A stretch of 55,386 nucleotides of DNA from an uncultured Sulfurospirillum sp. (GCA_964651755.1 CAZYZD010000001.1:1-55386), one strand, 5' to 3'; shown: positions 23,922 to 44,803, counted from the stretch's first letter. The notes: generated from the sequence alone by a model not told the origin. Made by a program: numbers and translations.

Positions 23922-23929
23922 TTAAAATA

Positions 23930-25105: not shown

Positions 25106-25277
25106 ATCACTACTTCTCCCACCTTCTTTTAATAAAATAATTTTATAGTATCATATCGATAAATATTTTGTCAATTATTATTAATTTTGTCTTTTAAACT
25201 ATACCTTTTTCAAAAGTATTTTATTACCAGAAAAGAGCTACAATAAAACACTACAGCACAGCGCAAGAGGTTCTTTT

Positions 25278-26558: not shown

Positions 26559-26563
26559 AAATC

Positions 26564-27805
26564 TCATAAAATCGTATTTTTTGCAACCTCTTTGTTTTCC
26601 CAAAAGAGTTCGGCAACAAAAGCAGCTATTACCAACATCATGAGATTAAGCTTGTCATAATAACTCACTCCTCCCATATCATAGACAAAAACAGCCAATA
26701 CAAAAAAAATCAGCAAAAAACGAATAAACTGATCTTTCACGTACCAAGCCTTTACCAAAACAAAAAAATGTATCGCATAGTAAAGTACCAATCCTGTCAA
26801 TCCACAATCTGCCAGAAGTTCTGTAAAGTTGTTATGCGAATATACCCCCTGATAGGAACGAACAGTATCTACACCTGTTCCAAACAAAGGATTTTCTTTA
26901 AAAGTCTGTAATGCAGTCGCTATGAATTCAAGCCGTTCTTCTGCACTATGCTCAACACTTTCACCGGATAAAGAAGCAAAGATATAACCTATCCTCTCTA
27001 TCCCAAACTCAACTATCTGTGCCAGTTGCATCCATTTCTGATCATCAATAAAAAGCAGTGCCATAATCAAAAGTACAATACCACTCCAAATCATAAAAGC
27101 CCTCCTCTCTTTATCCCAGAATGAAACTATAATAAAGAAAAAAATAAGAGCAAAAGCGACAACCAACCCTGTACGTGAAACTGTTATCAAAATCACATAA
27201 TAGGAAAGTACAATATTGACGATACCCAGAAGCAAAAACAGCTTGTTTTTCGTAATCTGCATCCATAGAATTGTCACAAAAATAGTATAAAACATAAATG
27301 CAGAAGTAATATTCGGATTGATTGTCGTTCCCATAAACCGAATAGTTCCCTCAAAATAAGGCACAAATGAGACTGGAAACAGACCGACTGCGATTAATAC
27401 ATTTACCAATGTACCGATAAAAAGTCCAAAAAAGAGTGCTGAAAACATACGATACTTTTTCAGAATATTGTATACCAGCAGCAAATTGATTGTAATTTTA
27501 ACCATTCGACCAATCATTTCCGAGCTAATGGCATAATCAATCGACCAAAAGAGAGAAGCAGCACAATAGAGAAAAAAGAGAATATACCCCACAGTTACAC
27601 TGTTGAAATAGAACTGTCTGTCACTATATAAAAATTCCAGAAAAAGAAAATATCCCACCATAACAACATTTGCCAAATTGCTGTAAATAACATTATCGGG
27701 TCTGGCAAATATAATCAATGAAGCAAAATAGAACATAATCACCACATACATACCAAGCAGCAAAAAATGCGGTAATTGTGTCGGGGAAGCTTTCATTTGT
27801 ATCAT
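26564..27805 (-). CDS. O-antigen ligase/polymerase-like (Wzy family) membrane protein
   Basis: 413 aa, polytopic (>=10 TM helices), with a large periplasmic loop containing HSAEERLEF...NPLFGTGVD...YSHNNF, as in the Wzy_C/O-antigen ligase domain. Confidence 0.7.
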   Translation of the reverse strand: MIQMKASPTQLPHFLLLGMYVVIMFYFASLIIFARPDNVIYSNLANVVMVGYFLFLEFLYSDRQFYFNSVTVGYILFFLYCAASLFWSIDYAISSEMIGRMVKITINLLLVYNILKKYRMFSALFFGLFIGTLVNVLIAVGLFPVSFVPYFEGTIRFMGTTINPNITSAFMFYTIFVTILWMQITKNKLFLLLGIVNIVLSYYVILITVSRTGLVVAFALIFFFIIVSFWDKERRAFMIWSGIVLLIMALLFIDDQKWMQLAQIVEFGIERIGYIFASLSGESVEHSAEERLEFIATALQTFKENPLFGTGVDTVRSYQGVYSHNNFTELLADCGLTGLVLYYAIHFFVLVKAWYVKDQFIRFLLIFFVLAVFVYDMGGVSYYDKLNLMMLVIAAFVAELFWENKEVAKNTIL

Positions 27806-27867
27806 GATGTTAAATAGATTCCATTATTTGTTTTAGTACTTTAACATCGCTTATTTTCAGAAAAAGT

Positions 27868-29328
27868 TTAACGTATAGCAGTATTGAATTTCAGAAGTTC
27901 CCTCCACCATGACTGCCGTACAAAATCAGAAAAACGGGTATTGTCATTATCTGCCCAGATATGGATGCTATCTATCAAACCATCTTTATAGTATCCATAC
28001 AATGTCTCCAGATACCACTTAAAATCCTCACCGTGTAACGGCTTATGTGCCAGTTTTGCACTATACGCCCACCCCTCTGTATAATGCGGACTAATAGAAG
28101 CAATAACAGATACATCAGGATTTAACCGTTTAATCTCCATAAACTTACTCAGCATATACCCTTCCTGCTTTCTTCTGCCCTCTTTTGTACTCAAATCAAA
28201 CATTGGATAAGCAAGAGGCATCACATAATCCACTACATCTATAAGCGGCTTATATATTAATGAATCATTAAGATGCCACTCGTCATAATCGATCCGCCAA
28301 TGTGTACTGCTTCCTTTTGCCAAAGCGGTATTGTCCAAATTTTTACGATTATCATTGTAACGATTCCAAAGCACTACACTGTTCCACAATCCTACCTTTG
28401 TATGTGGCAACAGTCTCTTGACACCAAGAATGGCTTCGAGTTTTTTTGCCATTGCATCTCTGACAATCTTTTTACCATGATTACGCACTTTTTCGGTATT
28501 GAGAAACTTACTGACAAAAGCACCGTATGGAGAGTATTCTCTGATTACATACTCCAGTACAGAAGGTACATGCTCGATATCAAGCACTACTATCCCCTCT
28601 TTGGTATCTATTTTCCTGCAAGCTGCAGCACTCTTTAAATCATGAAGAACCAACATTTGAAGTTTTTTGATATTTGGACGACTCAACACTCTTGATTTAC
28701 TGTCATCCAGAAAGGGTACAGGTTCATAAAAATCATCCACCCAGTACATGGTACTGTTGGTCAAACCATATTGACGCATCGTGCCGTCTTTGGTATGTCT
28801 GCGAAGATAGACTTCTTTGTCGCCTGCACCTCCCTCTATATCATCATATATTTTAAACTGATGAGATACCTGACTAACAAAAGAACTCCCTTTTTGCGTC
28901 AAAGCTGAAAAACTTTCAGAAATTTGCTGTCCATTTTTCAGATAAAATATAATCCTATACCGATATGAAGTACCTGACAAAAGATCTCTATCTGCAAAAC
29001 CATTCCATCTATGCCCAATATCTTTTGCTTTTCGGTTAATAATCTTTTTCAAAGGTTTATTTTGACGAACTATCTCAACATGATCGATACTGTAACCATT
29101 TTCATCCCACTCAATATAGAGAGTATGCATACCGCTGTATATATCAATATGAATTTTCCCCTTGATCGACTTTATCAAGCTATCTTTTAGAGTATCCAGG
29201 GAAGTATCATTTTTATGTAGTTTTTGTATAACTTCTTCTAGTCTGTTTATCTGCATATTTGCCTCACAAACTCTCAAAAAAAGAAAGAATACAATAATAC
29301 CGAACAACCATTTTTTTTCTCGTTTCAT
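27868..29328 (-). CDS. secreted or membrane-anchored hypothetical protein (possible glycan-processing enzyme)
   Basis: N-terminal hydrophobic signal/anchor WLFGIIVFFLFLRVCEA. About 80 aa of beta-rich N-terminal domain, then a ~330-aa Trp/Tyr/Asp-rich domain (VVLDIEH, WVDDFYEP, IHIWADND). No family assigned. Confidence 0.4.
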   Translation of the reverse strand: MKREKKWLFGIIVFFLFLRVCEANMQINRLEEVIQKLHKNDTSLDTLKDSLIKSIKGKIHIDIYSGMHTLYIEWDENGYSIDHVEIVRQNKPLKKIINRKAKDIGHRWNGFADRDLLSGTSYRYRIIFYLKNGQQISESFSALTQKGSSFVSQVSHQFKIYDDIEGGAGDKEVYLRRHTKDGTMRQYGLTNSTMYWVDDFYEPVPFLDDSKSRVLSRPNIKKLQMLVLHDLKSAAACRKIDTKEGIVVLDIEHVPSVLEYVIREYSPYGAFVSKFLNTEKVRNHGKKIVRDAMAKKLEAILGVKRLLPHTKVGLWNSVVLWNRYNDNRKNLDNTALAKGSSTHWRIDYDEWHLNDSLIYKPLIDVVDYVMPLAYPMFDLSTKEGRRKQEGYMLSKFMEIKRLNPDVSVIASISPHYTEGWAYSAKLAHKPLHGEDFKWYLETLYGYYKDGLIDSIHIWADNDNTRFSDFVRQSWWRELLKFNTAIR

Positions 29329-29447
29329 AAAGTTATTTTAACATAGAACAAACTATTTTACAAAAGAGAACTTCTCTTATAATTTGTCTAAAAAAAAATT
29401 TTGCATAGCCGATACTGTTTCTATGAATTTATACAAGGAACAGAGCA

Positions 29448-31766
29448 ATGGACATGAACTATGAGGGAAATGTGATCAAGCTGGAAAAATTTCTGGCAGA
29501 ACTATTTAAACATAAACTCTCCAATTTAATAATCATAACCTTATTTGTTCTGTTTGGTTATCTTTACTATAAGGTCACTACTCCTGTCTATATGTCCCGG
29601 GCAACAATTGAGATTAAAAATCCCCAGCCCACAAGAGACAATATGCTTTTTACGCTGGATACTACTACAAATCTGGAAACAGATAAAGACATTCTCAAAT
29701 CCGATCGTCTTATTGAACGAACTATCAAAACACTGGGTGGTTTTGTCGACTATAATTATCATCAAACTTTAAAAACTGTAACACTTTATAAAAATACACC
29801 TTTTGTAGTAAAAAATTTTATCATATACAATCCAGAACTCTATGGAACAGAACTACTGATACATGATATAGGGGAGAACCATTACCGCCTTGAAGTAAAA
29901 CACTCCTTTTTAAAAAAAAATCTCTCCAGACTTGGTTTCAAAAACAAAAAATATTCATTTGAAAATCAAGTATATACATACAACAAGCCTTTTGCAACAA
30001 AAGATATAGCACTTTTGATTATTAAGAAGAGAGATTTCCTCCATAAAAAATATGGTTTTATCATTCACAATAAACTTGAAACAATTGCAAATGTAAAAAA
30101 CCGACTAAATATTACACCTATGTCACCCCGCTCAAATATTCTTAAATTGACCTATAAAGATTATAATCCCATACGTGCCAGAGATTTTCTTAATACACTC
30201 ACCCAACACTTCCTACACTACAGTGTATCTGATCAGACAGAAACACAAAAAAGCAAACTTGCTTTTATCAATCAGCAGCTTGCTTTGGTAAAAAGTAAAC
30301 TAATCCTTTCCGAAAATCAGCTGGAAAAATTTAAAGTCAGCCATAATATTGCAGATATCGAAACCCAGCGAAACGAAATTATCAAAAAAATTGCCCAGAT
30401 AGAAACAGAATATGAAGAGAGTAAAATAGAGTATCAAAGAGTCAATCTTCTCTACAGAGAGATTCATAAAAACAATTATGCCGTTTTGGGAATCATTGGT
30501 AATCACTATCCAACTTTGGCAGATATGTTACAAACACTTGAAAATCTTACTGCCCAAAAAGAAGCCATGCTTGCAAACCTGACAGAACGACACCCGGATG
30601 TTATCAGTATCAGAAAAAATATTGCAGATTTACAAACAAATATCAAAAAACTGGTAAATGCTATTCGTAAAGATATCAATAAAAAATATCACACACTTAC
30701 CAAAAATCTCACAGAAGCAAAAAAATCTCTCAATGCCTTTCCTAGTCAGGAAAAAGAGTTTGCACGACTGAAACGTATTTTCGATGTCAATGACAAAATG
30801 TATAACTATCTTTTGAAAAAACAATCCGAACTTTCCATTAAAGATAAAGCTTTAAATTCTAATAAAAAGATCCTTGACAAAGCCAAAATCGCACCTAAAC
30901 CATTAAGTCCGAAACTTGGTGCAGCAATTGCTGTCAGCACACTTCTGGGACTTTTTACAATAGCTATTCTGACACTTTATCGCATCAAGAAAAATGTCAT
31001 TGTAAAAAGTGCTGTTGATATCAGCGAAATATCTGATGTACCTATTTTTGGTCTTATTCCCTATGTAGAAAACACCCATCTCTACAACCGAGCCTATGTA
31101 ATCGCCGATCCAAATTCACCGGCAAGTGAAGCTTTCAGGATCATACGTACCAACCTGGACTATATAGTCACAGATGAAAAATCCAAAGTGATTCTGGTCA
31201 CCTCCTCCGTACCAAACGAAGGCAAAACTGTTGTCTCATCCAATCTGGCAGCTGTTATAGGGATGGGAGAGAAAAAAACAATACTTGTTTCTCTTGATCT
31301 GCGCCGTCCCGAACTTCATCACAAATTTGGACTTCCAAACAATTTTGGGATGAGCGACGTCCTTTCAAACAGAAAAAAATTACATGATGTTATCTGGAGA
31401 CATGAACATTTTCCAAATTTACATATTATTACTTCTGGAAGAATACCGCCAAATCCTGCCGAACTGGTCAACTCAAAACGGACTGCAGAAATCATAGATA
31501 CACTCAAAAAAGAGTATGATTATGTCATTATAGATACGCCTCCAGTAAAATATGTCGCAGATGCTATATCTCTTTTTAAATATGCAGATATCAAACTTTT
31601 TGTATTAAAATCTGAATTTTCACAAAAAAAGCATGTCAAAGAGATTGAAGAACTGATTCACAAATATAAACTGAAACATTGTGGATTTATCCTCAACTCT
31701 GTCAAAGAGAAGTATCTGAACAAAGCCTATTTCGATAAAAAATATATCTTTTACGACTATCTTTAA
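29448..31766 (+). CDS. Wzc-like polysaccharide co-polymerase fused to BY-type tyrosine autokinase
   Basis: Two TM helices flank a long coiled-coil periplasmic domain. Kinase Walker A SSVPNEGKT, Walker A' VSLDLRRP, Walker B YVIIDTPP. Tyr-rich tail KYLNKAYFDKKYIFYDYL. Confidence 0.85.
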   Translation: MDMNYEGNVIKLEKFLAELFKHKLSNLIIITLFVLFGYLYYKVTTPVYMSRATIEIKNPQPTRDNMLFTLDTTTNLETDKDILKSDRLIERTIKTLGGFVDYNYHQTLKTVTLYKNTPFVVKNFIIYNPELYGTELLIHDIGENHYRLEVKHSFLKKNLSRLGFKNKKYSFENQVYTYNKPFATKDIALLIIKKRDFLHKKYGFIIHNKLETIANVKNRLNITPMSPRSNILKLTYKDYNPIRARDFLNTLTQHFLHYSVSDQTETQKSKLAFINQQLALVKSKLILSENQLEKFKVSHNIADIETQRNEIIKKIAQIETEYEESKIEYQRVNLLYREIHKNNYAVLGIIGNHYPTLADMLQTLENLTAQKEAMLANLTERHPDVISIRKNIADLQTNIKKLVNAIRKDINKKYHTLTKNLTEAKKSLNAFPSQEKEFARLKRIFDVNDKMYNYLLKKQSELSIKDKALNSNKKILDKAKIAPKPLSPKLGAAIAVSTLLGLFTIAILTLYRIKKNVIVKSAVDISEISDVPIFGLIPYVENTHLYNRAYVIADPNSPASEAFRIIRTNLDYIVTDEKSKVILVTSSVPNEGKTVVSSNLAAVIGMGEKKTILVSLDLRRPELHHKFGLPNNFGMSDVLSNRKKLHDVIWRHEHFPNLHIITSGRIPPNPAELVNSKRTAEIIDTLKKEYDYVIIDTPPVKYVADAISLFKYADIKLFVLKSEFSQKKHVKEIEELIHKYKLKHCGFILNSVKEKYLNKAYFDKKYIFYDYL

Positions 31767-31807
31767 TATGATATATTTTGAAGTAAAGAGAGGATATTAT
31801 CACCTTT

Positions 31808-32896
31808 ATGAAGCCACATAAAAAACGTATATTCTTCTTTCTTCCATTTATGAACGGCGGCGGTGCCGAAAGAGTTGTCCTTACACTTTTGACACATCTT
31901 GACAAAACAAAATTTGAACCTACTCTTGTACTGCTCAAAAAAGAGGGACGCTACCTTCCTCTTGTTCCAAAAGATATCAAAATCATCGATCTTCAAGTCA
32001 CACAAGCACGTTATGCTCTCTTTAAAATTGTACAACTTGTCAAAAAAGAGAAACCGGATATCATTTTTACCACCCTCGCCTACCTCAACCTTATTATTGC
32101 ACTTATCATTCCTCTTTTTAAGAATAGCGTCATGTTTATTGCCCGTGAATCCAATACCGTTTCTGTCAGGAACAAAAGAGAAAAATATCCCAAAATTTTT
32201 GACTGGCTCTATCGAAATATCTACAAAAATTTTCATCATATTGTCACACAGGCAGAAGCAATGAGGGAAGATCTTCAAAAAAACTACAAAATTCCCGTAT
32301 CAAAAATGCAAATCATATACAATCCGGTTGATAGCAATTATATTCGAAGTATGTCACTAAAAAAATCAGAACTATTGCCCAAAACAAAATATAACCTGCT
32401 TGCAGTAGGTAGACTGGACTATGAAAAAGGATTTGATTTGCTGCTTCAAAGTATTTCTCAACTTGATGAAAGCTACCACCTCACAATTTTGGGAGAAGGA
32501 GAAGAGAAAGAAGCACTTTTACTCCAGACAAAAGCCCTAAAGCTTGAAAACCAAGTCACCTTTGCCGGTTTTACAGATAATCCCTACGCTTATATGAAAG
32601 AAGCAGATCTTCTGGTACTGAGTTCGCGTTATGAAGGTTTACCAAATGTTATTCTCGAAGCAAACTGCTGCGGTACACCTGTTGTTGCCTATGACTCGGC
32701 AGGAGGAACGGGGGAGATTGTTCATAACGGGGAAAACGGTTATTTGGTACCTCCGTTTGATACTGTATTATTTGCAAAAACCATAGAAAAAGCACGTCAT
32801 CACACTTTTGATTCCCAAACTATTGCACAACATACGGAAGAGCTTTTTGGTATCGATAAAGTGATTCAAAAATACGAAAACCTATTTTTATCATAA
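31808..32896 (+). CDS. glycosyltransferase family 4
   Basis: N-terminal MNGGGAERV and C-terminal LSSRYEGLPNVILEANCCGTPVVAYD (E-x7-E). Confidence 0.85.
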   Translation: MKPHKKRIFFFLPFMNGGGAERVVLTLLTHLDKTKFEPTLVLLKKEGRYLPLVPKDIKIIDLQVTQARYALFKIVQLVKKEKPDIIFTTLAYLNLIIALIIPLFKNSVMFIARESNTVSVRNKREKYPKIFDWLYRNIYKNFHHIVTQAEAMREDLQKNYKIPVSKMQIIYNPVDSNYIRSMSLKKSELLPKTKYNLLAVGRLDYEKGFDLLLQSISQLDESYHLTILGEGEEKEALLLQTKALKLENQVTFAGFTDNPYAYMKEADLLVLSSRYEGLPNVILEANCCGTPVVAYDSAGGTGEIVHNGENGYLVPPFDTVLFAKTIEKARHHTFDSQTIAQHTEELFGIDKVIQKYENLFLS

Positions 32897-32919: not shown

Positions 32920-33207
32920 TTATCGAAGTTGACGCCCTTTTTTACATTTTTCCAGCTCTTTTTTCAATCTTTTGATTTCAGCCTTTAACATTGCATTCTC
33001 TTCTTTGAGACTTTTTGGCGGATTTTGTAAAATAATCTCTTCCGACAACTCTGCTTCCACTTCATCATCCAGTAAAATATAAACTATCTCCTTACCATTT
33101 TCTTCAACTGTTTCTGTCTTTACTTTTCCTTCACGCGTCATTTTAATAACATTATAGATACTAAGTTTGTGTGTTCTGGCATACTCTTTAATAGTAGCTC
33201 TCTTCAT
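32920..33207 (-). CDS. small DNA-binding protein (excisionase/MerR-like HTH plus C-terminal coiled coil)
   Basis: TIKEYARTHKLSIYNVIKMTREGKV resembles HTH_17-type helix-turn-helix. The C-terminal EENAMLKAEIKRLKKELEK is zipper-like. Confidence 0.45.
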   Translation of the reverse strand: MKRATIKEYARTHKLSIYNVIKMTREGKVKTETVEENGKEIVYILLDDEVEAELSEEIILQNPPKSLKEENAMLKAEIKRLKKELEKCKKGRQLR

Positions 33208-33277: not shown

Positions 33278-33742
33278 ATGACAAAAAACAAAATATTACA
33301 ACAACTACAACAGATTGAACAATTTGACAATACAAAAATGCTGGAAATTTTTCGTCTTGGCGAAATGGAAATACCAAAAGAGCGACTTGAAGGCTATCTT
33401 GCAACACCTGAAGAGAAACACTATCTTGACTGCGGCGCACAGGCATTGGGGCACTTTCTGGATGGGCTTATTCTTTACAAACGCGGTCCGTCTGATAAAA
33501 AAACCTCTGATGAGACACCAGTAGCACTGACAAATAATTTGATCTTAAAAAAACTTCGTATTGCTTATGATCTTAAAGAAGCTGATTTATTTGCCATTTT
33601 CAATGCAGTGGATATAGAGATTACAAAAGGTGAACTCAGCTCTTTATTTCGTAAAGAAGATCATAAGAAATTCAGATTCTGCCCGGACTCGATACTGGAA
33701 CTCTTTTTAGAGGGATTAAAGATTTGTGAACAAAAAATTTAA
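33278..33742 (+). CDS. DUF1456 (YehS) family protein
   Basis: Duplicated module. NNLILKKLRIAYDLKEADLFAIF and HKKFRFCPDSILELFLEGL match my recollection of E. coli YehS (NNIVLKKLRIAFSLK..., HKNFRECGDQFLRYFLRGL). Confidence 0.65.
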   Translation: MTKNKILQQLQQIEQFDNTKMLEIFRLGEMEIPKERLEGYLATPEEKHYLDCGAQALGHFLDGLILYKRGPSDKKTSDETPVALTNNLILKKLRIAYDLKEADLFAIFNAVDIEITKGELSSLFRKEDHKKFRFCPDSILELFLEGLKICEQKI

Positions 33743-33753
33743 TACTTTATATT

Positions 33754-33897
33754 TTACTTCTGTTCAAATATATTTTTCAACTTCTGTAAAACGCTATCTT
33801 GAGATTTAAGTCCCACTCTTTCACGTAAAGCTTTAATCTCATAATAGAGCTTTCGCAAATGTACAGGTACATAAATCTCAAATTCTTCTTTTTTCAT
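33754..33897 (-). CDS. 47-aa ORF, ribbon-helix-helix-like, translationally coupled to the MotB-like gene
   Basis: Not in the ORF track (<60 aa). Hand translation: MKKEEFEIYVPVHLRKLYYEIKALRERVGLKSQDSVLQKLKNIFEQK. Its ATG overlaps the upstream TGA (ATGA at 33894-33897). A short beta segment followed by two helices resembles CopG/Arc-type RHH proteins. Confidence 0.4.
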   Translation of the reverse strand: MKKEEFEIYVPVHLRKLYYEIKALRERVGLKSQDSVLQKLKNIFEQK

Positions 33898-34985
33898 CTA
33901 TTTAAAAATTTCTCCAGTTCTTTAATCGCTTTTTCATTTTTGATACGAAATTTGATCTCAATTCTTCTGGAAGCGCTTTTATCTTCATTGCCGTTATTAT
34001 CATAAATAAGATCCGCATAGGATCTGCCGCTTGCACTCAAATATTTACTATATAGTTCCCTGTTTGAAGGATCACTTTCATATAAAAACTTCATAACTTC
34101 CAAAGCACGCTTTTGGGAAAGCGCAAGATTATACAAATAACCTCCCACACTGTCAGTATGCCCTTCAATTGTGATACCCTCTATATAATTACGTATCTCT
34201 TTATCCAAAAGCAGTGTCAAGATATACTTTTGCAAGATCGCCTTAAGTTCCTTTTTTGCCGAAGGTTTGAGTTTATAGGCACCTTGATTAAAGAGAATAT
34301 TTGAAGAAAAACGCATTGCACCGCTTTTTGGATCAATCTGAATCGAATCACCCAGTTTCTCTTTAAGTTTACTGACAACTTTAATACGAATACCAGTCAA
34401 ATTCTTAATTTTGACTTTGGTAATATTGAGTTCATCTACAAGTTTTTGATGTTCTATACTTTGATGAAGCAGTTTTTTACCAAGTGCTGCGATCTCTTCA
34501 TCTTTTAATATCATGATGTTTCGTATAGCCGATAAATTCTGTTCCAGAATATCTGCCCTGCCGGTTTCATAAAGCAACTTGTTCTGAGTCTCATTCAGAT
34601 CACTTTGCAAGGAGGAAATTTCTGTCTGAAATGCTTTTTCACCCTCTTCATAATCCAAAATCAATGCTTTAAGTTTTGCCACTTCATTTGCCTGTAAAGT
34701 CAAATTTTTGACAAATGATTCTTTCTCCTTTTTCATCTTTGCAAGATCTTCAATACTTTTATGCAATTTTCGACGAAGTTCCTGAACCTTTTTATTTTTA
34801 CTTTCCAAAGCCTGTTCACTCAAGCCCAGTGCTTCCCTTTTTTGTGCTAAATCCTGCTGTACATAAACATACCGCACTACAATAGCCCCAACAACAAGAA
34901 TAAAAACGAACAAAAGTCCTGCCATCAAGTCAGCATAGGATATCCAAAAGTTTTGTTCCTCTTTTTCATGATCTTGCTTATACAT
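33894..34985 (-). CDS. MotB/OmpA-family protein with long coiled-coil spacer
   Basis: N-terminal WISYADLMAGLLFVFILVVGAIVV (MotB-type TM helix with conserved Asp), ~170 aa of heptad-rich sequence, and a C-terminal OmpA-like peptidoglycan-binding domain (IEGHTDSVGGYLYNLALSQKRALEV...SASRRIEI). Confidence 0.8.
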   Translation of the reverse strand: MYKQDHEKEEQNFWISYADLMAGLLFVFILVVGAIVVRYVYVQQDLAQKREALGLSEQALESKNKKVQELRRKLHKSIEDLAKMKKEKESFVKNLTLQANEVAKLKALILDYEEGEKAFQTEISSLQSDLNETQNKLLYETGRADILEQNLSAIRNIMILKDEEIAALGKKLLHQSIEHQKLVDELNITKVKIKNLTGIRIKVVSKLKEKLGDSIQIDPKSGAMRFSSNILFNQGAYKLKPSAKKELKAILQKYILTLLLDKEIRNYIEGITIEGHTDSVGGYLYNLALSQKRALEVMKFLYESDPSNRELYSKYLSASGRSYADLIYDNNGNEDKSASRRIEIKFRIKNEKAIKELEKFLNR

Positions 34986-34989
34986 ACAA

Positions 34990-36288
34990 CTATCCGTCCA
35001 TATCTTTCAACGAAGAGAGCTGCCGAATAATTTTTGCAGTTTCGGAATCTATCAGCTCCAGAGAAGTACGTAGTTTATTCGTATAGGATTCATCAAAATT
35101 ATTCAGATGCCTGTTAAATGCCACTGCCACTTTCTGGCTCTCAAGACGCATACTATTCAGACTCTCCTGAACATGTTTATAGAGCTTTTCTATATGTTCG
35201 GCATTGACACTTTCAAGCGCCCGGCTAAGCTCTTCCGTATGTTTTGCCAATAGTTGCGTCGTTCTCGATAAATTATCTTCCCTTACAGCCAAATCCTGAT
35301 TTACCAGGCGTAATAGTTTATGCGTACTCTCCAAAGAGTACACAACATCTTCCATCTTATTACGAATGTGTTCATACGCGCCGAAAAGCTGTTCACTCAT
35401 CTGCATACTTTTTTCACTGAGTTTGATAATCTCTTCAAAATGTTCGGTAGATTTTTGAAATGCTTTTTGTTCTTGATGTATAATCGACTCAAACATCTGC
35501 ATTCTCTCTTGCAAGGTATCTTGAAGATTATCTATAAATTCATTGGAAGAAATTTTGGTGAAAAGTGTATTGAGGTTTTCAAAATTTTTCATACTCTGGG
35601 TAAAATGTACCTGTTCAATCTCCTCTTTTGTCCAGAAAAAGCTACGTGTTTTTTCACGAATAATACGTACGTGCCGTTCAAATTCACTCATCCCCTTTTT
35701 CTCAAAAAAGATCCACCATAAAGAGAGGAAAATACCGTAAATAGAGACATAAAATGCTGTACCTACACCACCCAAAAGCTGAGAAATCTCCTGTTCCAGC
35801 TGGGCAGAATCCTGAGAAGAAAAATCCGGCATAGTCAAAGCGATGGAGATAAAAGTTCCCAAAATACCCAACGTAGGAAAAACACTTGCCGCTACTGAAG
35901 CGAAATTATCGTTGCGCAGCGAAGTAGTAAAATTTTTAATAAACTGATCAAACGGTGCATTTGCTTTGTGTACTCCACCTATATCAAGCAAATTTTTATC
36001 GATATATTTTTCCAAAGCTGCCCCAAGCACCCCTTGTTTTCTTTTAAACTTGCATGCCGCATAATAGGCATTGTGCTTCATAAAAAGAAGGTAAATAATA
36101 AAGATCATCCCTATCATCACTACACTATGAAACTCCATACGCAAAGATATCATCTTCAAATAAGCAGCTACGGCACCGGCAAATATCAGCAAAGGAATCC
36201 ATGCCAACCATATCAAACGACTAAAACAACTCCCCTGTTTACGGCTACTGACATGAAAGTCTACCAATTCATCTTCATCATACTTCAT
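34990..36288 (-). CDS. MotA/TolQ/ExbB-family proton-channel protein with ~235-aa C-terminal coiled-coil tail
   Basis: Four hydrophobic helices. The last pair (FPTLGILGTFISIAL ... LGGVGTAFYVSIYGIFLSLWWIFF) matches the MotA_ExbB channel signature. Residues ~200-432 are Glu/Lys/Gln/Leu-rich helical sequence. Confidence 0.75.
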   Translation of the reverse strand: MKYDEDELVDFHVSSRKQGSCFSRLIWLAWIPLLIFAGAVAAYLKMISLRMEFHSVVMIGMIFIIYLLFMKHNAYYAACKFKRKQGVLGAALEKYIDKNLLDIGGVHKANAPFDQFIKNFTTSLRNDNFASVAASVFPTLGILGTFISIALTMPDFSSQDSAQLEQEISQLLGGVGTAFYVSIYGIFLSLWWIFFEKKGMSEFERHVRIIREKTRSFFWTKEEIEQVHFTQSMKNFENLNTLFTKISSNEFIDNLQDTLQERMQMFESIIHQEQKAFQKSTEHFEEIIKLSEKSMQMSEQLFGAYEHIRNKMEDVVYSLESTHKLLRLVNQDLAVREDNLSRTTQLLAKHTEELSRALESVNAEHIEKLYKHVQESLNSMRLESQKVAVAFNRHLNNFDESYTNKLRTSLELIDSETAKIIRQLSSLKDMDG

Positions 36289-36399
36289 GAAATACTCCTG
36301 ATCTTTGGGGATTATAGCATCATAGATTTAGTATGATCTTGCAAACGATAACTATATTAGGTGTATAATGATATAAAGAGATACCCAGGAAGGAATACT

Positions 36400-36618
36400 A
36401 TGGATAATGAAATACATTTTATACTTCATCCAGATAAAGTAGAAGAATTAAAACTCTTTTCTGAAATTCTAAAAAAAGATTACAATACAATTCTCAATGA
36501 AGCACTGGAATTATATTTTGATGCTGCAAGAAAAAGGATGCTGGAAAAAAACTTTGAAGATGAAAATATGGAAACCAATCTGGATTTTGACGAATTTTGG
36601 GATGGTGTGGATATTTAA
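36400..36618 (+). CDS. 72-aa acidic protein, RHH/CopG-like N-terminus
   Basis: MDNEIHFILHPDKVEELKLFSEILKKDYNTILNEALELYF has a beta-helix-helix pattern, followed by an acidic tail. Start moved to the ATG at 36400 (AGGAAGGA upstream), because the track's GTG start at 36361 lies in a TATAAT-like box (36364-36369). Confidence 0.45.
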   Translation: MDNEIHFILHPDKVEELKLFSEILKKDYNTILNEALELYFDAARKRMLEKNFEDENMETNLDFDEFWDGVDI

Positions 36619-36780
36619 CTATTTTTCCTGATATTTACTGCAATCCTTTCCGCTGCTTTTTTTCACAACAGCGGAAGGAATTTGCAGAGATTTAAAACCA
36701 AAAGCTTTGCACCCATGGGGCTGATTTTTATCCCATGTCACATAATAGTAACGGCAACGCTTACAGTTTATTTTTAACAA
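36619..36780 (-). CDS. 53-aa Cys-rich (zinc-ribbon-like) small protein, TTG start
   Basis: Hand translation: (L)LKINCKRCRYYYVTWDKNQPHGCKAFGFKSLQIPSAVVKKSSGKDCSKYQEK. CxxC ... C ... C spacing. The TTG is 7 nt after an AGGAGA that sits at the end of the upstream gene. Below the 60-aa track cutoff. Confidence 0.4.
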   Translation of the reverse strand: MLKINCKRCRYYYVTWDKNQPHGCKAFGFKSLQIPSAVVKKSSGKDCSKYQEK

Positions 36781-36783
36781 ATA

Positions 36784-37482
36784 CTATCTCCTGCTTAAGA
36801 AAAGACCAACAGCCTGCAACTGTTTTCCATTTAACCCTTTACATAAACCATTTTTCACAACAAATGCTTTTGCCTCTGCCGGTGAACTGAATTTTTTATC
36901 GGTTGGTGTACACATTTTACCATAAATCATCTCTCCTTTTTTAGCCATCATTGCCTGTTTTTTGGAGATCATGGCACTATCTTTTTCAAAATCTTTTTTC
37001 GCGACTTCATATGCTCCCGCAAAATCCATCACTTTTCCACCATGTTCTTTGGCAAAAGCTTCTGCAGCTTCTTTGGAAGAGAATGCATACTTGCTTGTCA
37101 TACTCATTGTACCTTTTACATTACTTCCTACAACATATGTTGCTTTTTCAACAGGAATAAATTTCAAAGTTACAACATCTACAACTTTAATATTTTTGGG
37201 TTCTTTATGGTTGATCTCTTTATCTTCTACCAAACAGTGAATTGAACAATACTGTTTTACTTTTCCATCCACTTCAGCTGCATGATTGGACTTGTAAAAC
37301 ATCGGTAGATTCATACCACACTGAGGACAAAACATTTTGGCATCCCCTTGTTGCAGGATTTGTGCTTTATCCATTGGTACTGTTTGAAACATTTTGTGTT
37401 TCATCATCGGTTTTTGCCCCATATCGGCTCCTGCTGTCACAGACATCAAAAACATCAATGCAAATAAGAATAACTTTTTCAT
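36784..37482 (-). CDS. periplasmic protein with TRASH/YHS-like Cys motif and a NosL-like domain
   Basis: Signal peptide MKKLFLFALMFLMSVTAGA (start trimmed to the ATG at 37482). FCPQCGMNLPMF...YCSIHC metal-ribbon motif. MSMTSKYAFSSKEAAEAFAKEHGGKVMDF resembles the conserved C-terminal part of NosL. Confidence 0.55.
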   Translation of the reverse strand: MKKLFLFALMFLMSVTAGADMGQKPMMKHKMFQTVPMDKAQILQQGDAKMFCPQCGMNLPMFYKSNHAAEVDGKVKQYCSIHCLVEDKEINHKEPKNIKVVDVVTLKFIPVEKATYVVGSNVKGTMSMTSKYAFSSKEAAEAFAKEHGGKVMDFAGAYEVAKKDFEKDSAMISKKQAMMAKKGEMIYGKMCTPTDKKFSSPAEAKAFVVKNGLCKGLNGKQLQAVGLFLSRR

Positions 37483-37661
37483 AATTTTCCCCTTTTTAAA
37501 TAATTTCAAAAAAAAATTGTACAACACATTTGTTAACTTAATGTTAAACAAAACTTTAAATTATTAATAATATTTTTCTATCGATAATTAATATCTTCTT
37601 AAGCATTAAAGAAGTAAAATTCTTCTCGAAAAATAAAAATTATTCTAAAGGAGCAAATATC

Positions 37662-38684
37662 ATGAAAAAAACACTTAGTTTAGCACTTATCTTAGTCTCA
37701 ACTTCAACACTTTTTGCAGCTGATGCATTAATAGACAAAGCCAAAAAAGCAGGTTTGGCACCCATTCCGGCAGACAAAGCAGCCTTGATGAAACTCATCG
37801 ACAATCCCAAAAATCCTGTAACAGATGCAAAAGTAGAACTTGGTAAAAAACTCTATTTTGATCCAAGACTTTCTAAAAGCAACTTGATTAGTTGTAACAC
37901 TTGTCACAATCTTGCAACAGGCGGTATAGACGGTGTCAGTGCGGCAATTGGTCACAAATGGACAGCAAATCCTCACCACTTAAACTCTCCTACTGTATAC
38001 AACGCTGTATTTATGGATAAACAATTCTGGGACGGTAGATCTCCTGATCTTGAAGACCAGGCACAAGGACCTATGCAGGCAGCACCGGAAATGGCAATTT
38101 CAAAAGAGATGGCAGTTGAAAGAATCAGCTCTATGCCGGCATACGTAGAAGAGTTTAAAAAAGTTTATGGTGACGATAAAATCACTTTCAAAAAGATTGC
38201 AGATACTATCGGTGCATTTGAAAGAACTCTGGTAACGCCATCACCATTTGACAAGTTTCTACAAGGAGATGCAAACGCTTTAACAGATGCACAGAAAGAG
38301 GGTCTTAAAGTATTCATCGACAAAGGCTGTACAGCATGTCATACCGGTGTAGGTATAGGTGGAAGTATGCAGCCATTCCCTGTTGCGAAACCTTACAAAT
38401 ATGCAAATGTTGGTGATTTCAAAGGTGACAAAAACGGTATGGTAAAAACACCGACATTAAGAAATATCACTGAAACAGCACCTTACTACCACAACGGTGC
38501 AGTATGGTCATTGAGTGAAGCAATCAAAATCATGGGAGAAACACAACTTGGTGTAGATTTGACAGATAAAGAAGTTGCTTCTATCAAAGCATTTTTGACT
38601 TCACTTACAGGTGAAAAACCAAAAGTAATCTATCCTCAACTTCCGGCAGTTACAGATAAAACACCAAAACCTGTCGCTGATTAA
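37662..38684 (+). CDS. dihaem cytochrome c peroxidase (CCP/MauG family)
   Basis: Signal peptide, two haem motifs CNTCHN and CTACHTG, conserved FWDGR and PTLRN motifs. Confidence 0.9.
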   Translation: MKKTLSLALILVSTSTLFAADALIDKAKKAGLAPIPADKAALMKLIDNPKNPVTDAKVELGKKLYFDPRLSKSNLISCNTCHNLATGGIDGVSAAIGHKWTANPHHLNSPTVYNAVFMDKQFWDGRSPDLEDQAQGPMQAAPEMAISKEMAVERISSMPAYVEEFKKVYGDDKITFKKIADTIGAFERTLVTPSPFDKFLQGDANALTDAQKEGLKVFIDKGCTACHTGVGIGGSMQPFPVAKPYKYANVGDFKGDKNGMVKTPTLRNITETAPYYHNGAVWSLSEAIKIMGETQLGVDLTDKEVASIKAFLTSLTGEKPKVIYPQLPAVTDKTPKPVAD

Positions 38685-40031: not shown

Positions 40032-42635
40032 ATGAAATCTATCGTAAAGAAACTGTCGCTGATTGCAATCAGTACGATGGTAGGTGTGACGTTGGGTAAC
40101 GCCGCAACCGAGCTTGACAAGGTCATGAAAGAGAGAGGTCTTTCTCAGGCTGACTTGCTCGCTGCAGCGAAAACCTATACACCTAGTGGTGGAAGGGACA
40201 AATATATCGTTTTCAGTTCAGGAGGACAATCCGGACAGATTATGGCATATGGTGTTCCATCTATGAGAATTTTAAAATATATCGGTGTATTTACACCGGA
40301 ACCATGGCAAGGTTGGGGTTATGATGATGACACCAAAAAAGTACTTGCACAGGGAAATATCCGCGGAAAGAAGATCACATGGGGTGACACACACCACCCT
40401 GCTATCTCAGAAACCGACGGTAAATACGACGGTAAATGGCTTGTCATCAATGATAAAGCGAACCCTCGTATCGCAGTTATTGATCTGAGTGACTTTGTTA
40501 CAAAACAGATCGTTGTCAATCCGGTTTTCAAATCTGATCACGGTGGAGCTTTCTTCACACCAAACTCAGAATATATCCTGGAAGCCTGCCAGTATGGTGC
40601 ACCTCTGGATAACAACTATCATCCGATTGAAGAGTATGCAGAAACTTATCGTGGTGGTGTAACGGTTTGGAAATTTGATCATGAAAAAGGAAAAATTCTT
40701 CCGGATCAATCTTTCACAATCGAAATGCCTGCCTATATGCAAGATCTTTCCGACGCTGGTAAAGAAGCTTGTGACGGATGGGGTTTTACCAATTCATTTA
40801 ACTCAGAGATGTATACCGGTGGTATCGAAAAAGGTCTTCCTCCATTTGAAGCGGGATGTAGCCGTAATGACACTGACTTTTTGCATGTCTACAACTGGAA
40901 AAAACTTGCTGAACTTGCCAAAGATGACAAAAATGTCAAAATTATTAATGGACACAGAGTTGTTCCTATTGATGTAGCAGTCAAAAATGATGCACTTTTC
41001 TTGATTCCTGAACCAAAATCACCTCACGGTGTTGATGTTTCACCAGATGGTAAATATATCGTTGTTTGTGGTAAACTTGATACACATGCAACAGTTTACT
41101 CTTGGGAAAAAATCCAAAAGCTGATCAAAGCAAAAGATTTTGTTGGAAAAGATCCATATGGTATTCCAATTCTTGATCTCAAAAAGACAGCGCATTGTCA
41201 GGCAGAGCTGGGTCTTGGGCCACTACATAACCAGTATGGACCAAAATGGAAAACAGATGGAGAAATCTATACTTCACTTTATGTTGATTCTCAGGTTGTA
41301 AGATGGAACTATCTTACTTGTAAAGTTACAGATCGTCAAAATGTTAACTACAACATCGGTCACCTTTGCGGAATGGAAGGAAAATCTCGTGATCCTCAGG
41401 GTGATTATATCATTGCTCTGAACAAACTTGCTATCGACAGATTTAACGAAATTGGACCATTGCATCCACAAAACCATCAGTTGATAGATATTCGCGGTAA
41501 AAAGATGCAACTACTTTACGATATGCCGGTACCACTGGGTGAACCACACCAGGCGGTTGCTATCAGAGCATCTAAACTACATACGCATGTACGTTACAAA
41601 ATGGGTACAAATGCTTTCACAGGTAAAATCCATGAAGGTAAAACACTTGCAGGTCAGGAAAAAATTGTTAGAAAAGGTAACCATGTTTATGTTTACGGTA
41701 CAGTGGTCAGATCACACATCAACCCTGAGCACGTAACAGTAAACAAAGGCGATACTGTTACTTTCTATCTGACAAACCTTGAGAGAGCAGAAGATGAGAC
41801 ACATGGTTTTACAGTAGACCAATACAATATCCATACATCACTTGAGCCGGGTAAAACTGTTGCAGTTACTTTCAAAGCAGATCTGGAAGGTGTATTCCCT
41901 TACTATTGTACAGAGTTCTGTTCAGCACTTCACCTGGAGATGATGGGTTACCTGCTTGTCAAAGATCCAAACAAAAAATATGTTAGTGCTGCAAAACTAA
42001 AACGTGCAAAAATGTCACCTGAGCAACTAAAAGCTGAGTATGACAAAACAGTTGCAACAAACAAAGCAACAGATGCTGTTATCCAAAGTGTTGTGAAATT
42101 CCTCAAAGAAAACCACTATGAGAAATATCCAACAGTCAAAGCACTTGTTGAAGATGCACTTGACCAATATGGTAAAATCCCTGAGCAGAAAAAACATTCT
42201 GATGAAGCTGTTAAAGAAGGTGATCTTGAAAAAGCAATTCTCTTCGAAAACATGATCTGGCAATACATGGTTAAAACTGCTGACGTTGGTATTAGAGCTA
42301 AAGACCTTCTTGTAACAAAAGTTGCATCACCTATGAGTGAAGCAGCACAAAGAGGTAAAGAAGCATTCTTAGAAGGCGGTTGTAACGGTTGTCACGTTGT
42401 TGGAAAAGTAAGTTCCGGACCAGATTTGGTTGGTGTTCTCAGCCGACATGAAAATGGTGAGCAGTGGGTAAAAGAGTTTATCTTGAAACCTGAATCTAAA
42501 TACAAAGATCCATATGTTGAATCTATGATTAACTACTTTAACCTCAGAATGCCTAACCAAGGTATGAGTGAGAAACAAGCTAAGGATATCATTGAATATC
42601 TCAAATGGATCGACAAGAACGCTAACTTGTTCTAA
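40032..42635 (+). CDS. nosZ: nitrous-oxide reductase, clade II (Sec-type) with C-terminal monohaem cytochrome c domain (cNosZ)
   Basis: 867 aa. Signal peptide without a twin-Arg. CuZ His motifs (GDTHHP). CuA site HGFTVDQ...CTEFCSALHLEMMG. About 100-aa C-terminal extension with CNGCH (nt 42381) and a distal Met (LRMPNQGM). Confidence 0.95.
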   Translation: MKSIVKKLSLIAISTMVGVTLGNAATELDKVMKERGLSQADLLAAAKTYTPSGGRDKYIVFSSGGQSGQIMAYGVPSMRILKYIGVFTPEPWQGWGYDDDTKKVLAQGNIRGKKITWGDTHHPAISETDGKYDGKWLVINDKANPRIAVIDLSDFVTKQIVVNPVFKSDHGGAFFTPNSEYILEACQYGAPLDNNYHPIEEYAETYRGGVTVWKFDHEKGKILPDQSFTIEMPAYMQDLSDAGKEACDGWGFTNSFNSEMYTGGIEKGLPPFEAGCSRNDTDFLHVYNWKKLAELAKDDKNVKIINGHRVVPIDVAVKNDALFLIPEPKSPHGVDVSPDGKYIVVCGKLDTHATVYSWEKIQKLIKAKDFVGKDPYGIPILDLKKTAHCQAELGLGPLHNQYGPKWKTDGEIYTSLYVDSQVVRWNYLTCKVTDRQNVNYNIGHLCGMEGKSRDPQGDYIIALNKLAIDRFNEIGPLHPQNHQLIDIRGKKMQLLYDMPVPLGEPHQAVAIRASKLHTHVRYKMGTNAFTGKIHEGKTLAGQEKIVRKGNHVYVYGTVVRSHINPEHVTVNKGDTVTFYLTNLERAEDETHGFTVDQYNIHTSLEPGKTVAVTFKADLEGVFPYYCTEFCSALHLEMMGYLLVKDPNKKYVSAAKLKRAKMSPEQLKAEYDKTVATNKATDAVIQSVVKFLKENHYEKYPTVKALVEDALDQYGKIPEQKKHSDEAVKEGDLEKAILFENMIWQYMVKTADVGIRAKDLLVTKVASPMSEAAQRGKEAFLEGGCNGCHVVGKVSSGPDLVGVLSRHENGEQWVKEFILKPESKYKDPYVESMINYFNLRMPNQGMSEKQAKDIIEYLKWIDKNANLF

Positions 42636-43585: not shown

Positions 43586-44803
43586 ATGAAAGCTGCTTTG
43601 GTTTTACTCCTTTTCGCATTGTCACTGAACGCAAATCTTTTGCAAGATGCTATCGACAATGCAAAAGAGGGTTCAAAACTGCAGCTGCCTGCGGGAGTTT
43701 ATAAAGGAAATATCGTTATAAACAAACCGCTGATTATTGAGGGAGCAAGCAAAAAAACAGTGATTGAAGGTGATGGTAAAGGTACCGTTGTTACTATCTC
43801 AACCTCATTTGTCACTCTTAAAAATCTCACTATAAGACGCAGTGGAGATCAACATGAAAGAGTCGATGCAGGTGTATCGCTCAAAAAAGTACACCACTGC
43901 AATATACTGAATTGCCATATAGAAGATGCACTGTTTGGTATTGACCTTCAGGAGACACATGAATCCAATATCAGTAACAATTTCATTACCTCCAAACCTT
44001 TTGACCTGGGACTGCGCGGGGATGCCATCCGGCTTTGGTACAGCAATGACAACATCCTGACACATAACCATATAACCAAATCAAGAGATTTTGTTGTCTG
44101 GTATTCTCATGGAAATTTGATTGCAAATAATTACGGCGAATTTGGCAGATATTCTCTACACTTCATGTATACCGGAAAAAATATCGTTAAAAACAATGAA
44201 TTTGTACATAATTCGGTCGGTATCTTTTTTATGTATTCCAAGGACACCATCGCCACAGGAAATATTGTTAAAAACTCACTGGGTACAACAGGTCTTGGAA
44301 TTGGTCTTAAAGATTGTTCCAACTATACTATCAAAGAAAATAAAATACTCTATTGTGCCAGAGGACTCTATGTTGACAGATCACCTTTTGAACCCGATAC
44401 CGTCAACCATATAGAAGACAATTATATTCTCTATAATAGTGAAGGTGTGCGTTTTCACTCTTTGAGTCTGCACAATATATTTAAAGGAAATATCATCAAA
44501 GGCAATATTGAAGCAGTAGTCAACGATTCATACAACACAAAAGTCACAGAAAATGTCTGGGACGGTAACTACTGGGACAACTACGAAGGCTTTGACAAAG
44601 ATGGTGACGGTATCGGGGATACACCGCACAATCTGTATTACTATGCTGACAAAATGTGGCTTTTAAATCCAAATGTAAAGTTTTTTTACGGTTCGCCGGT
44701 CATCTCAATATTGAATTTTCTGGCAAAACTGGCACCTATCTCGGAGCCTGTAAGATTACTGACTGATGAACATCCTAAAATGATGGAGGGGAAAATATTA
44801 TGA
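43586..44803 (+). CDS. nosD: NosD periplasmic beta-helix protein
   Basis: Signal peptide, repeated parallel beta-helix (NosD/CASH) units (N-x-I-x-N patterns), and a DKDGDGIGDTP motif near the C-terminus. Confidence 0.9.
   Translation: MKAALVLLLFALSLNANLLQDAIDNAKEGSKLQLPAGVYKGNIVINKPLIIEGASKKTVIEGDGKGTVVTISTSFVTLKNLTIRRSGDQHERVDAGVSLKKVHHCNILNCHIEDALFGIDLQETHESNISNNFITSKPFDLGLRGDAIRLWYSNDNILTHNHITKSRDFVVWYSHGNLIANNYGEFGRYSLHFMYTGKNIVKNNEFVHNSVGIFFMYSKDTIATGNIVKNSLGTTGLGIGLKDCSNYTIKENKILYCARGLYVDRSPFEPDTVNHIEDNYILYNSEGVRFHSLSLHNIFKGNIIKGNIEAVVNDSYNTKVTENVWDGNYWDNYEGFDKDGDGIGDTPHNLYYYADKMWLLNPNVKFFYGSPVISILNFLAKLAPISEPVRLLTDEHPKMMEGKIL

Follow-up and report, generated by a model that had tools for sequence, protein, structure and literature searches.

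A gene pair of ZorAB type by sequence and predicted fold, lacking Zorya effectors and widespread in Campylobacterota

To our knowledge, no class of 5:2 ion-driven motors is more recent than the ZorAB complexes, which have so far come only from phage defence. The examples from type I and type II Zorya systems (E. coli, 8QYD; Shewanella, 8VVN; Sulfuricurvum kujiense, 8VVI) combine a MotA/ExbB-type A subunit that extends into a long, all-helical cytoplasmic tail with a ZorB subunit that carries an aspartate-bearing transmembrane (TM) helix, FWISYADLM, and an OmpA-like peptidoglycan-binding domain. Here we describe an operon with these same elements on a 55,386-nucleotide stretch of DNA from an uncultured Sulfurospirillum species (GCA_964651755.1, CAZYZD010000001.1:1-55386), hereafter called the window. 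All three of its genes lie on the minus strand. Gene A (34990-36288) encodes a ZorA-like protein of 432 amino acids and the MotA/ExbB type, gene B (33894-34985) starts 4 nucleotides past the A stop codon and encodes a ZorB-like protein of 363 amino acids and the MotB/OmpA type, and an open reading frame (ORF) coupled to B, here called C (33754-33897), encodes a cationic protein of 47 amino acids.

An earlier note on this DNA had described A and B as an orphan MotA/MotB-like pair with coiled-coil extensions. Our comparisons indicate that the two proteins are of the ZorA/ZorB type by sequence and predicted fold, and are neither flagellar MotAB nor Tol/Ton components. With moderate confidence, we read the A-B-C operon as a ZorAB-type ion-driven motor belonging to an effector-less Campylobacterota lineage, with a constitutive, envelope-linked role in cell-wall surveillance or mechanics, and not as a mobile defence module.

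Relationship of A and B to Zorya motor proteins

The channel core that the earlier note saw in A is recognised by the Pfam family MotA_ExbB at residues 125-209 (E 3e-8; 33.9 bits against a cut-off of 22.9). Four TM helices are predicted (approximately 21-43, 53-70, 127-152 and 161-196), a beta-hairpin at 100-109 lies within the cytoplasmic loop, and the channel motifs FPTLGILGTFISIA and GGVGTAFYVSIYGIFLSLWW are invariant among 65 A homologues. Past the fourth TM helix, the protein continues as a cytoplasmic tail of about 236 amino acids, which had been noted as a helical tail of about 235. An AlphaFold2 model of A (a monomer built with 65 homologues, with a predicted local distance difference test (pLDDT) value of 71.7 and a low-confidence break at residues 279-295) is helical throughout 161-431, in agreement with that description. 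In alignments, the base of the tail (205-275) and its tip, FDExF...LELIDSETAKII at 398-420, are conserved, and the middle varies. Four invariant residues of A (C21, H54, H72 and C79) were considered as a metal or redox site, and this candidate was dropped because, of the four, only H54 is kept in Campylobacter orthologues.

Protein B likewise has the layout that had been proposed for it, namely a MotB-type TM helix with a YADLM aspartate, a spacer and an OmpA-like domain. Its N-terminal TM helix bears Asp19 (FWISYADLM), which is invariant in 45 B homologues, and is followed by a periplasmic coiled coil at about 38-190. A conserved linker, LVDELNITKVKIKNLTGIRIKVV, then leads to the OmpA-like domain for peptidoglycan binding at about 215-350, which contains the motif YNLALSQKRALEV and matches Pfam OmpA at 231-339 (E 1e-13, 51.8 bits). 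In the AlphaFold2 model of B (a monomer built with 45 homologues, pLDDT 75.7, low-confidence breaks at 53-60 and 108-115), residues 8-211 form three long helices.

Searches by profile, sequence and predicted fold place Zorya proteins first or among the top matches. Against PADLOC, A matches ten ZorA models (ZorA2/ZorA1) with E values from 5e-18 to 3e-5 and scores of up to 63 bits, and B matches the ZorB1 model PDLC00609 at E 1.4e-62 (209 bits) in two stretches split by the inserted stalk. When compared by sequence with PDB chains, B finds E. coli ZorB (8qyd_F) best, at 4.6e-14 and with an identical FWISYADLM segment, ahead of flagellar MotB (6ysf) at 3.5e-4; among the top matches of an A family profile to PDB, the channel-family matches are ZorA chains. 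Foldseek returns ZorA as the top six matches to the A model (E 2e-5 to 5e-4, probability 1.00), against E values of about 0.05-0.1 for ExbB/TolQ and above 0.3 for flagellar MotA, and the B model is matched best by the ZorB chains 8vvi_B, 8vvn_B and 8qyd_F (E 8e-10, probability 1.00). At a PADLOC E value of 1e-62 for ZorB1 and Foldseek probabilities of 1.00, these likenesses are far beyond chance. Precomputed weak matches to PF28082 ('ZorA-like_t1') are also recorded on many homologues (e.g. P0056, P0077, P0416), with none recorded on window A. The name of this family shows that Pfam curators had already noticed such proteins, and we found no literature on the term.

Models for the competing motor types score poorly. 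Flagellar MotB models of NCBIfam give B 24-38 bits against cut-offs of 264-301, and MotB_plug gives 18.1 bits, below its cut-off of 24. Protein B has no ExbD/TolR domain and no TonB/TolA C-terminal domain, ending instead in its OmpA-like anchor, and no TonB/TolA-like neighbour was found in the window or at the surveyed loci. These loci derive from two pattern scans of contigs representing one genome per species, from each of which the best 80 were kept, with taxon labels of metagenome-assembled genomes (MAGs) used as deposited.

Although the best family matches of A and B are all Zorya models, the pair falls outside Zorya proper. First, the NCBIfam cut-offs are missed by a wide margin (ZorA_4, 39.9 of 500 bits; ZorA_2, 36.4 of 100; ZorB1, 77.6 of 400; ZorB2, 55.4 of 400). 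Second, PADLOC detects no ZorC, ZorD, ZorE, ZorF or ZorG, either within the operon or among the 14 window neighbours scanned, in line with the earlier note's remark that no ZorC/D/E effector is present, and no third large gene is conserved across 82 non-redundant loci. Third, the distribution of the pair is not of the patchy, island type.

Coiled-coil extensions and a small cationic protein

The stalk of B varies widely in length and keeps its phase. From FWISYAD to LTG(I/V/L)(R/K), the distance takes 16 values between 148 and 246 among 112 homologues, and 15 of these values equal 1 modulo 7, the single exception being 197+11. This residue class holds 110 of the 112 sequences, and an independent measure of stalk length at genomic loci likewise places 79 of 82 in one class, with three exceptions at +4 (equal to +11-7); the sequences share ancestry and such counts, for stalk and tail alike, are not independent; it is fairer to go by how many distinct lengths occur. 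Campylobacter stalks fall into the same class or into one offset by +4 modulo 7. Alignment-averaged hydrophobicity across B residues 40-185 has its maximum at a period of 3.50, in phase over 146 residues, a value reached by 1 of 300 shuffles. In the tail of A, GIFLSLWW and the tip motif lie 227 apart in 65 proteins and otherwise 220, 216, 213, 209 or 304 (differences of -7, -11, -14, -18 and +77), and local hydrophobic periods are 3.55 and 3.65. From these patterns we infer that both extensions are probably continuous coiled coils, in which register would be under selection and length free. If they are extended, at 0.15 nm per residue, the modelled B stalk would reach about 22 nm in this protein and about 18-33 nm across the family, and the A tails would make a rod of about 35 nm.

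The 47-amino-acid ORF is a real gene that is coupled to B and that much of the phylum conserves. The coupling, reported earlier, consists of an ATGA in which the start codon of C and the TGA of B overlap ('tcat' on the plus strand, 33894-33897). C-type ORFs of 37-58 amino acids, starting from -29 to +8 nucleotides relative to the B stop codon, are present at 62 loci from Sulfurospirillum, Sulfurimonas, Arcobacteraceae and relatives. Their consensus, xxLYxPKxLxxL(S/R), continues through a lysine-rich stretch to sFFxKIKxxF; the median isoelectric point (pI) is 10.2 and the median net charge +8 (range +4 to +12). The helical hydrophobic moment of the C terminus is 0.71 compared with 0.53 after shuffling, and 97% of the sequences beat their own control. 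A hidden Markov model trained on the 62 ORFs, which had been picked directly downstream of B, matches 74 of 27,069 six-frame ORF segments, with at most one match per locus: the window ORF (33757-33897) and 73 more in loci L001-L088. The model has no match in Campylobacter loci or in the defence-type loci described below.

The proposal that this ORF encodes a ribbon-helix-helix (RHH) DNA-binding regulator found no support in sequence searches of Pfam, NCBIfam and PDB. None of 32 family members matches an RHH family of Pfam at E<=1, and the family profile finds no RHH chain in PDB at E<=10. Because of this, we treat C, whose sequence looks cationic with an amphipathic C terminus, as a probable small accessory subunit and not as a regulator. 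The tip motif of A, FDExF...LIDSET, occurs in 101 of 107 homologues from outside Campylobacter and in none of the 115 from Campylobacter, which parallels the presence and absence of C. This co-distribution fits an interaction between C and the tip.

These features can be assembled into a working model. By analogy with the solved ZorAB structures, five A subunits would surround the TM helices of two B subunits, an arrangement consistent with the proton-driven 5:2-type machine that had been suggested for this locus. Beyond the membrane, the B dimer would form a stalk, a rigid parallel coiled coil in heptad phase, whose far end is fixed to peptidoglycan by the OmpA-like domain. Proton flow by way of Asp19 of B and the invariant Pro/Thr/Gly-rich third and fourth TM helices of A would turn the A pentamer around this anchored axle. 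On the cytoplasmic side, the five tails might form the helical rod of about 35 nm, whose conserved tip could engage a partner encoded outside the operon. Protein C, which occurs only in lineages with the tip motif, would serve as an accessory subunit that might tie the rod tip or the motor face to the membrane.

Inheritance, defence-island relatives and competing functions

The two scans recovered a relative in at least 387 and at least 532 Campylobacterota species genomes, and the loci listed come from Sulfurospirillum, Sulfurimonas, Sulfuricurvum, Sulfurovum, Arcobacteraceae and Campylobacter. Named homologues include those of C. jejuni, C. coli, C. lari, C. upsaliensis, C. fetus, C. hyointestinalis, C. 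sputorum and others. An exhaustive profile-free search gave 55 representative clusters at E<1e-30, beyond which full-length matches drop to ZorA-like proteins of 550-700 amino acids (E about 1e-13 to 1e-8), with only fragments between. Thus the A-B family is large and essentially confined to Campylobacterota.

B directly adjoins A at 76 of the 82 loci, and across families the pair has no other conserved neighbour in this set. Within families, the surroundings are stable. In Sulfurimonas, the neighbourhood comprises a tRNA methyltransferase gene, fliP and motBA, the pair lying about 4-5 kb from motA-motB-fliP; this is the only flagellar linkage seen at the surveyed loci. In Campylobacter, the pair always follows nth-peb4-fba. 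At 14 Arcobacteraceae loci, a gene for a YkuD-type L,D-transpeptidase is divergent and immediately upstream of A (e.g. L063, 5844-6839, minus strand), a linkage limited to this one family. In a neighbour-joining tree of A, sequences group by family label. Because of the housekeeping neighbours, the within-family synteny and this grouping, the Campylobacterota A-B lineage appears to have been vertically inherited.

A divergent copy in Sulfurospirillum sp. UBA2217 (L009, 8001-10147) has an A of 380 amino acids with 38% identity to window A and a B with 47% identity. No small ORF was detected downstream of it, and it branches near the Campylobacter clade in the tree. Perhaps this copy is a paralogue, or it goes back to an old transfer.

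In C. jejuni, the gene order is nth, peb4, fba, A, B, followed by genes for a pyridoxal-phosphate enzyme, an SNF transporter, a MOSC protein and dsbD. This order agrees with Cj0595c-Cj0603c of strain NCTC 11168, and the orthologues are therefore Cj0598 (A) and Cj0599 (B), equivalent to CJJ81176_0626/0627 and CJM1cam_0575/0576. They are annotated as 'membrane protein' and 'OmpA family membrane protein', respectively, and our literature search found no function assigned to either. The architecture is the same, with a tailed A of 449-480 amino acids whose motor is about 46% identical to that of window A and a B of 317 amino acids with stalk and OmpA-like domain, and the proteins give the same weak matches to ZorA and ZorB models, again missing the NCBIfam cut-offs. 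The C. jejuni orthologues differ from the window operon in having no small C gene and in that A ends in an acidic, low-complexity stretch where the tip motif would be.

Both genes are non-essential in three strains (PMC5430854, supplement; bioRxiv 10.1101/2025.04.02.646747, supplement), and the motor is dispensable for growth in vitro in C. jejuni. In a mouse-colonisation study, Cj0598 and Cj0599 do not stand out as colonisation-defective: their log2 changes were -4.1 and -3.7, equal to those of their neighbours and within the general downshift that the authors describe; neither locus tag appears anywhere in the main text, where Table 1 gives 143 significant genes (PMC5438104). In a transposon-sequencing (Tn-seq) data set, values were +0.67 for Cj0598 (p 0.048) and +0.89 for Cj0599 (p 0.003) where motA was at -1.22 (bioRxiv 10.1101/2025.04.02.646747). 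This mild enrichment under conditions that deplete motA disfavours the accessory role in the flagellar motor that the earlier note had kept among its options.

A different setting is seen for the closest long-tailed relatives of A, P0389 (581 amino acids) and P0392 (697 amino acids). Their motor domains, including the two N-terminal TM helices, are 49-50% identical to that of window A, which makes them as close to it as the Campylobacter orthologues are (46-49%), and their tails are longer and 16-19% identical to the window tail where alignable. Each is followed by a ZorB1-like protein of 219 or 253 amino acids (198-225 bits to PDLC00609, the PADLOC model that window B also matches best), which is short and lacks the stalk, and then by a protein of 415 amino acids with weak ZorC/EH-signature similarity. 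No small C protein is present. These modules (L089, 8001-11658; L090, 7841-11929; L091, 6263-10351) are flanked by genes for a DrmD-like SNF2 helicase (712 bits), PDC-S15, IetA-like and nSTAND proteins, and elsewhere by a type III restriction enzyme, GmrSD/HEC-06 and DNA methyltransferases. The helicase upstream in L089 scores 712 bits as DrmD and 110 bits as ZorD, and no ZorD was found among those L090 flanking proteins that were scanned, which were some of the neighbours at that locus and none at L091. The defence-type metagenome contigs have a low G+C content of about 31%, comparable with the 28-30% of the Campylobacter loci, and in a midpoint-rooted tree the defence-type branch falls together with the non-Campylobacter clade. 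Therefore, one motor clade has two lifestyles, being island-borne with ZorC-like partners or core-like without them. The modules at L089-L091 may represent an undescribed Zorya subtype.

We favour an envelope-linked role for the Campylobacterota pair over a mobile defence module because its inheritance is core-like and syntenic and its contexts are those of housekeeping genes. Several points weigh against this reading. Every experimentally characterised ZorAB relative that we know of is an anti-phage component, and the closest long-tailed relatives, with 49-50% motor identity, sit in dense defence islands. The rod geometry and the stoichiometry are drawn from monomer AlphaFold2 models of moderate confidence that have breaks in both tail and stalk, and a stalk of 18-33 nm would exceed the usual distance between the inner membrane and the cell wall, which is roughly 10-15 nm. 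Furthermore, the connection between C and the tip derives from one phylogenetic split, and neither a partner for the rod tip nor a phenotype came to light.

The rival that survives best, which we nevertheless consider unlikely, is that the operon is a minimal Zorya-type anti-phage system that became fixed in the core genome, in which ZorAB senses envelope damage caused by phage and acts through unlinked effectors, depolarisation or C. That the best family matches of A and B are all Zorya models speaks for this explanation, as do the sister modules of A, short ZorB and ZorC-like genes among DrmD-like, type III restriction-modification, GmrSD/HEC-06, IetA-like and nSTAND genes, and the grouping of their branch with the non-Campylobacter clade. 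A shorter tail need not be an obstacle, given that about 270 amino acids suffice in the solved type II ZorA of Sulfuricurvum (PMC11890865). However, neither the operon nor the scanned window proteins include ZorC/D/E/F/G and no neighbour is conserved at the 82 loci; the NCBIfam scores are far under the cut-offs (39.9 versus 500 and 77.6 versus 400 for A and B); and the stalk insertion of B is absent from all solved ZorB proteins. The housekeeping contexts, family-level synteny and taxonomy-following tree are also unlike Zorya, whose distribution has been described as patchy (PMC11890865).

We regard it as quite improbable that the motor is an energiser of the Tol/Ton kind that pulls or remodels an outer-membrane or cell-wall component, with the B stalk acting as TolA or TonB does. 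Such a stalk could span much of the periplasm, B resembles alphaproteobacterial PRK09039 'peptidoglycan-binding protein' models over its full length (6-346 versus 8-340 of 343), and the L,D-transpeptidase gene next to A at the 14 Arcobacteraceae loci also speaks for this reading. This linkage is nevertheless confined to one family, the fold of A resembles that of ZorA (E 2e-5) more closely than those of ExbB/TolQ (E about 0.05-0.1), B carries an OmpA-like anchor in place of the domains expected of ExbD/TolR or TonB/TolA, and a long cytoplasmic rod with a conserved tip would have no role.

Last, a Campylobacterota-specific flagellar stator, either alternative or accessory, to which the MotA/MotB-type domains, the Sulfurimonas pairs about 4-5 kb from motA-motB-fliP and the database name 'chemotaxis protein MotB, putative' for B might point, is very improbable and largely refuted, in that S. 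gotlandica and C. jejuni (Cj0336c/Cj0337c) have a separate canonical motAB, MotA comes after ZorA, ExbB and TolQ among the fold matches, the MotB and MotB_plug scores of B are below cut-off, flagellar genes are linked only in Sulfurimonas, the Tn-seq values of Cj0598 and Cj0599 rise where that of motA falls and neither is named with the mouse-colonisation genes, and a MAG labelled Sulfurovum, a usually non-motile genus, carries the pair.

Our preferred reading of an effector-less, envelope-linked motor has a more ambitious form, which we put forward tentatively as a possibility: the pair could be the first non-defence member of the Zorya family, a constitutive, wall-anchored rotary motor found throughout Campylobacterota, which would spin a cytoplasmic rod about 35 nm long and, through its rigid, heptad-phased stalk, convey the state of the wall mechanically to the cytoplasm. 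If so, the defence-island sisters would record the evolutionary passage from housekeeping motor to Zorya immunity or the reverse. The existence of sister lineages in defence islands and in core-like contexts makes the origin of Zorya testable. Likewise, a phylum-wide lineage without effectors, which includes the tractable pathogen C. jejuni with its Cj0598 and Cj0599 ('hypothetical' for 25 years), offers a simpler system in which to study the function of the ZorA rod. The stalks constitute a natural experiment, since their lengths vary by up to 14 heptads with phase kept, and this bears on how torque or conformational signals might pass from the cell wall to a membrane motor. Our literature search found no description of an effector-less, phylum-wide ZorAB lineage, a heptad-phased B stalk, the cationic partner or the equivalence with Cj0598/Cj0599, and the papers on ZorAB structures and on MotAB evolution that it covered do not describe effector-less ZorAB pairs or B stalks.

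Neighbouring genes and comparison with known systems

All four ORFs of the earlier note are present in the window sequence, with A, B and C exactly where it placed them. The fourth, which is divergent from A on the plus strand, runs from an ATG at 36400 (not 36401) to 36618, is preceded by an AGGAAGG ribosome-binding site and encodes an acidic protein of 72 amino acids (pI 4.3). It is a real gene, 75-83% identical in five close relatives and more conserved there than A. It is, however, a neighbour in one clade only and not part of the conserved system, so that of the four-gene unit proposed earlier, A, B and C stand together and the 72-amino-acid gene drops out. L004, L006 and every locus more distant than these relatives lack it, and its position changes: it lies before a 53-amino-acid gene in L007, and in L001 and L008 another gene separates it from A. 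Its protein has no match in Pfam, NCBIfam or PDB, which together with this distribution also disfavours the idea that it is an RHH regulator of the unit. The C terminus, RKRMLEKNFEDENMETNLDFDEFWDGVD, is nearly invariant. By eye, the N-terminal 40 residues have a strand-helix-helix look, and in tblastn they match, at chance level (E 0.07), an unannotated ORF of L004 (3748-3870) that, again by eye, may be CopG-like.

Between A and this gene lies an intergenic region of 111 bp (36289-36399), the presumed site of the A-B-C promoter on the basis of position only. A sigma-70 promoter scan of 33600-36800, with a model unsuited to Campylobacterota, gave 8 sites where 10.9 were expected and none in 36289-36399; a terminator scan of the same interval gave nothing above chance, and Rfam has no match in the whole window. 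A gene for a DUF808 membrane protein (292 amino acids, E 1e-99) directly follows C on the same strand in L001 (10534-11412), L003 and L014, and because of this insertion in some close relatives, the downstream border of the operon is variable.

The window operon is bordered by polysaccharide-synthesis genes on one side and by genes for NosL and a cytochrome c peroxidase, tgt and a nos cluster on the other. The 10 nearest neighbours, which are polysaccharide and nos genes, have no PADLOC match and include no flagellar, Tol, Ton or defence gene by Pfam or PADLOC, so that the reported absence of adjacent flagellar, Tol and Ton genes stands. Convergent with C, with 11 bp between the stop codons, is a gene for a DUF1456 protein with two repeats (33278-33742, plus strand, E 5e-43); next to it, a gene on the minus strand (32920-33207) encodes 95 amino acids with an N terminus that is helix-turn-helix-like by eye and a C terminus with a sub-threshold bZIP match. 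Both are syntenic with the A-B-C operon only in the closest relatives.

On the other side, a cysteine-rich ORF of 53 amino acids (36619-36780, minus strand; CxxC...HGC...C) lies between the NosL gene and the 72-amino-acid gene. It is 66-87% identical in about ten relatives, has no match in Pfam, NCBIfam or PADLOC, and may encode a small zinc-ribbon protein that travels with NosL. The nitrous-oxide reductase cluster (36784-37551, 40032-42635 and 43586-44803) encodes NosL, a NosZ of 867 amino acids with a C-terminal cytochrome c domain, and NosD. Taken with a gene of cytochrome c peroxidase type (37662-38684), this cluster points to a Sulfurospirillum-like organism capable of denitrification. 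The surface-polysaccharide cluster (21995-32896) comprises genes for an asparagine synthase-like protein, a Wzx flippase, a Wzy-type polymerase or ligase, a Wzz/BY-kinase protein of 772 amino acids and a GT4 glycosyltransferase, the last of which also matches the Pfam family 'GT4-conflict' at 35 bits. We considered and rejected a functional tie of the pair to the nos, DUF1456 or polysaccharide genes, as none travels with it beyond the closest relatives.

When set beside the known systems, the window pair belongs with flagellar MotAB/PomAB and with ExbBD/TolQR to a single superfamily of ion-driven motors, in which the B-type helix carries a conserved aspartate, and MotB resembles B in being anchored to peptidoglycan through an OmpA-like domain. 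Matches of A and B to these families are much weaker in both fold and sequence, and the window pair is unlinked to flagellar or Tol genes; unlike MotA, A has no FliG-facing cytoplasmic domain, and unlike ExbBD/TolQR, the pair has no TonB/TolA partner. Its closest counterpart is Zorya ZorAB, from which it differs in having neither ZorC/ZorD nor ZorE nor ZorF/ZorG and in the length of the A tail, which is about 236 amino acids compared with about 500 in E. coli ZorA. The Campylobacterota pair has in addition a heptad-phased coiled-coil stalk of 110-220 residues in B, where ZorB proteins of 246-282 amino acids, including all those solved, have none. Many of its operons also encode an extra cationic protein of 37-58 amino acids, and its genomic context is core-like, syntenic and outside islands.

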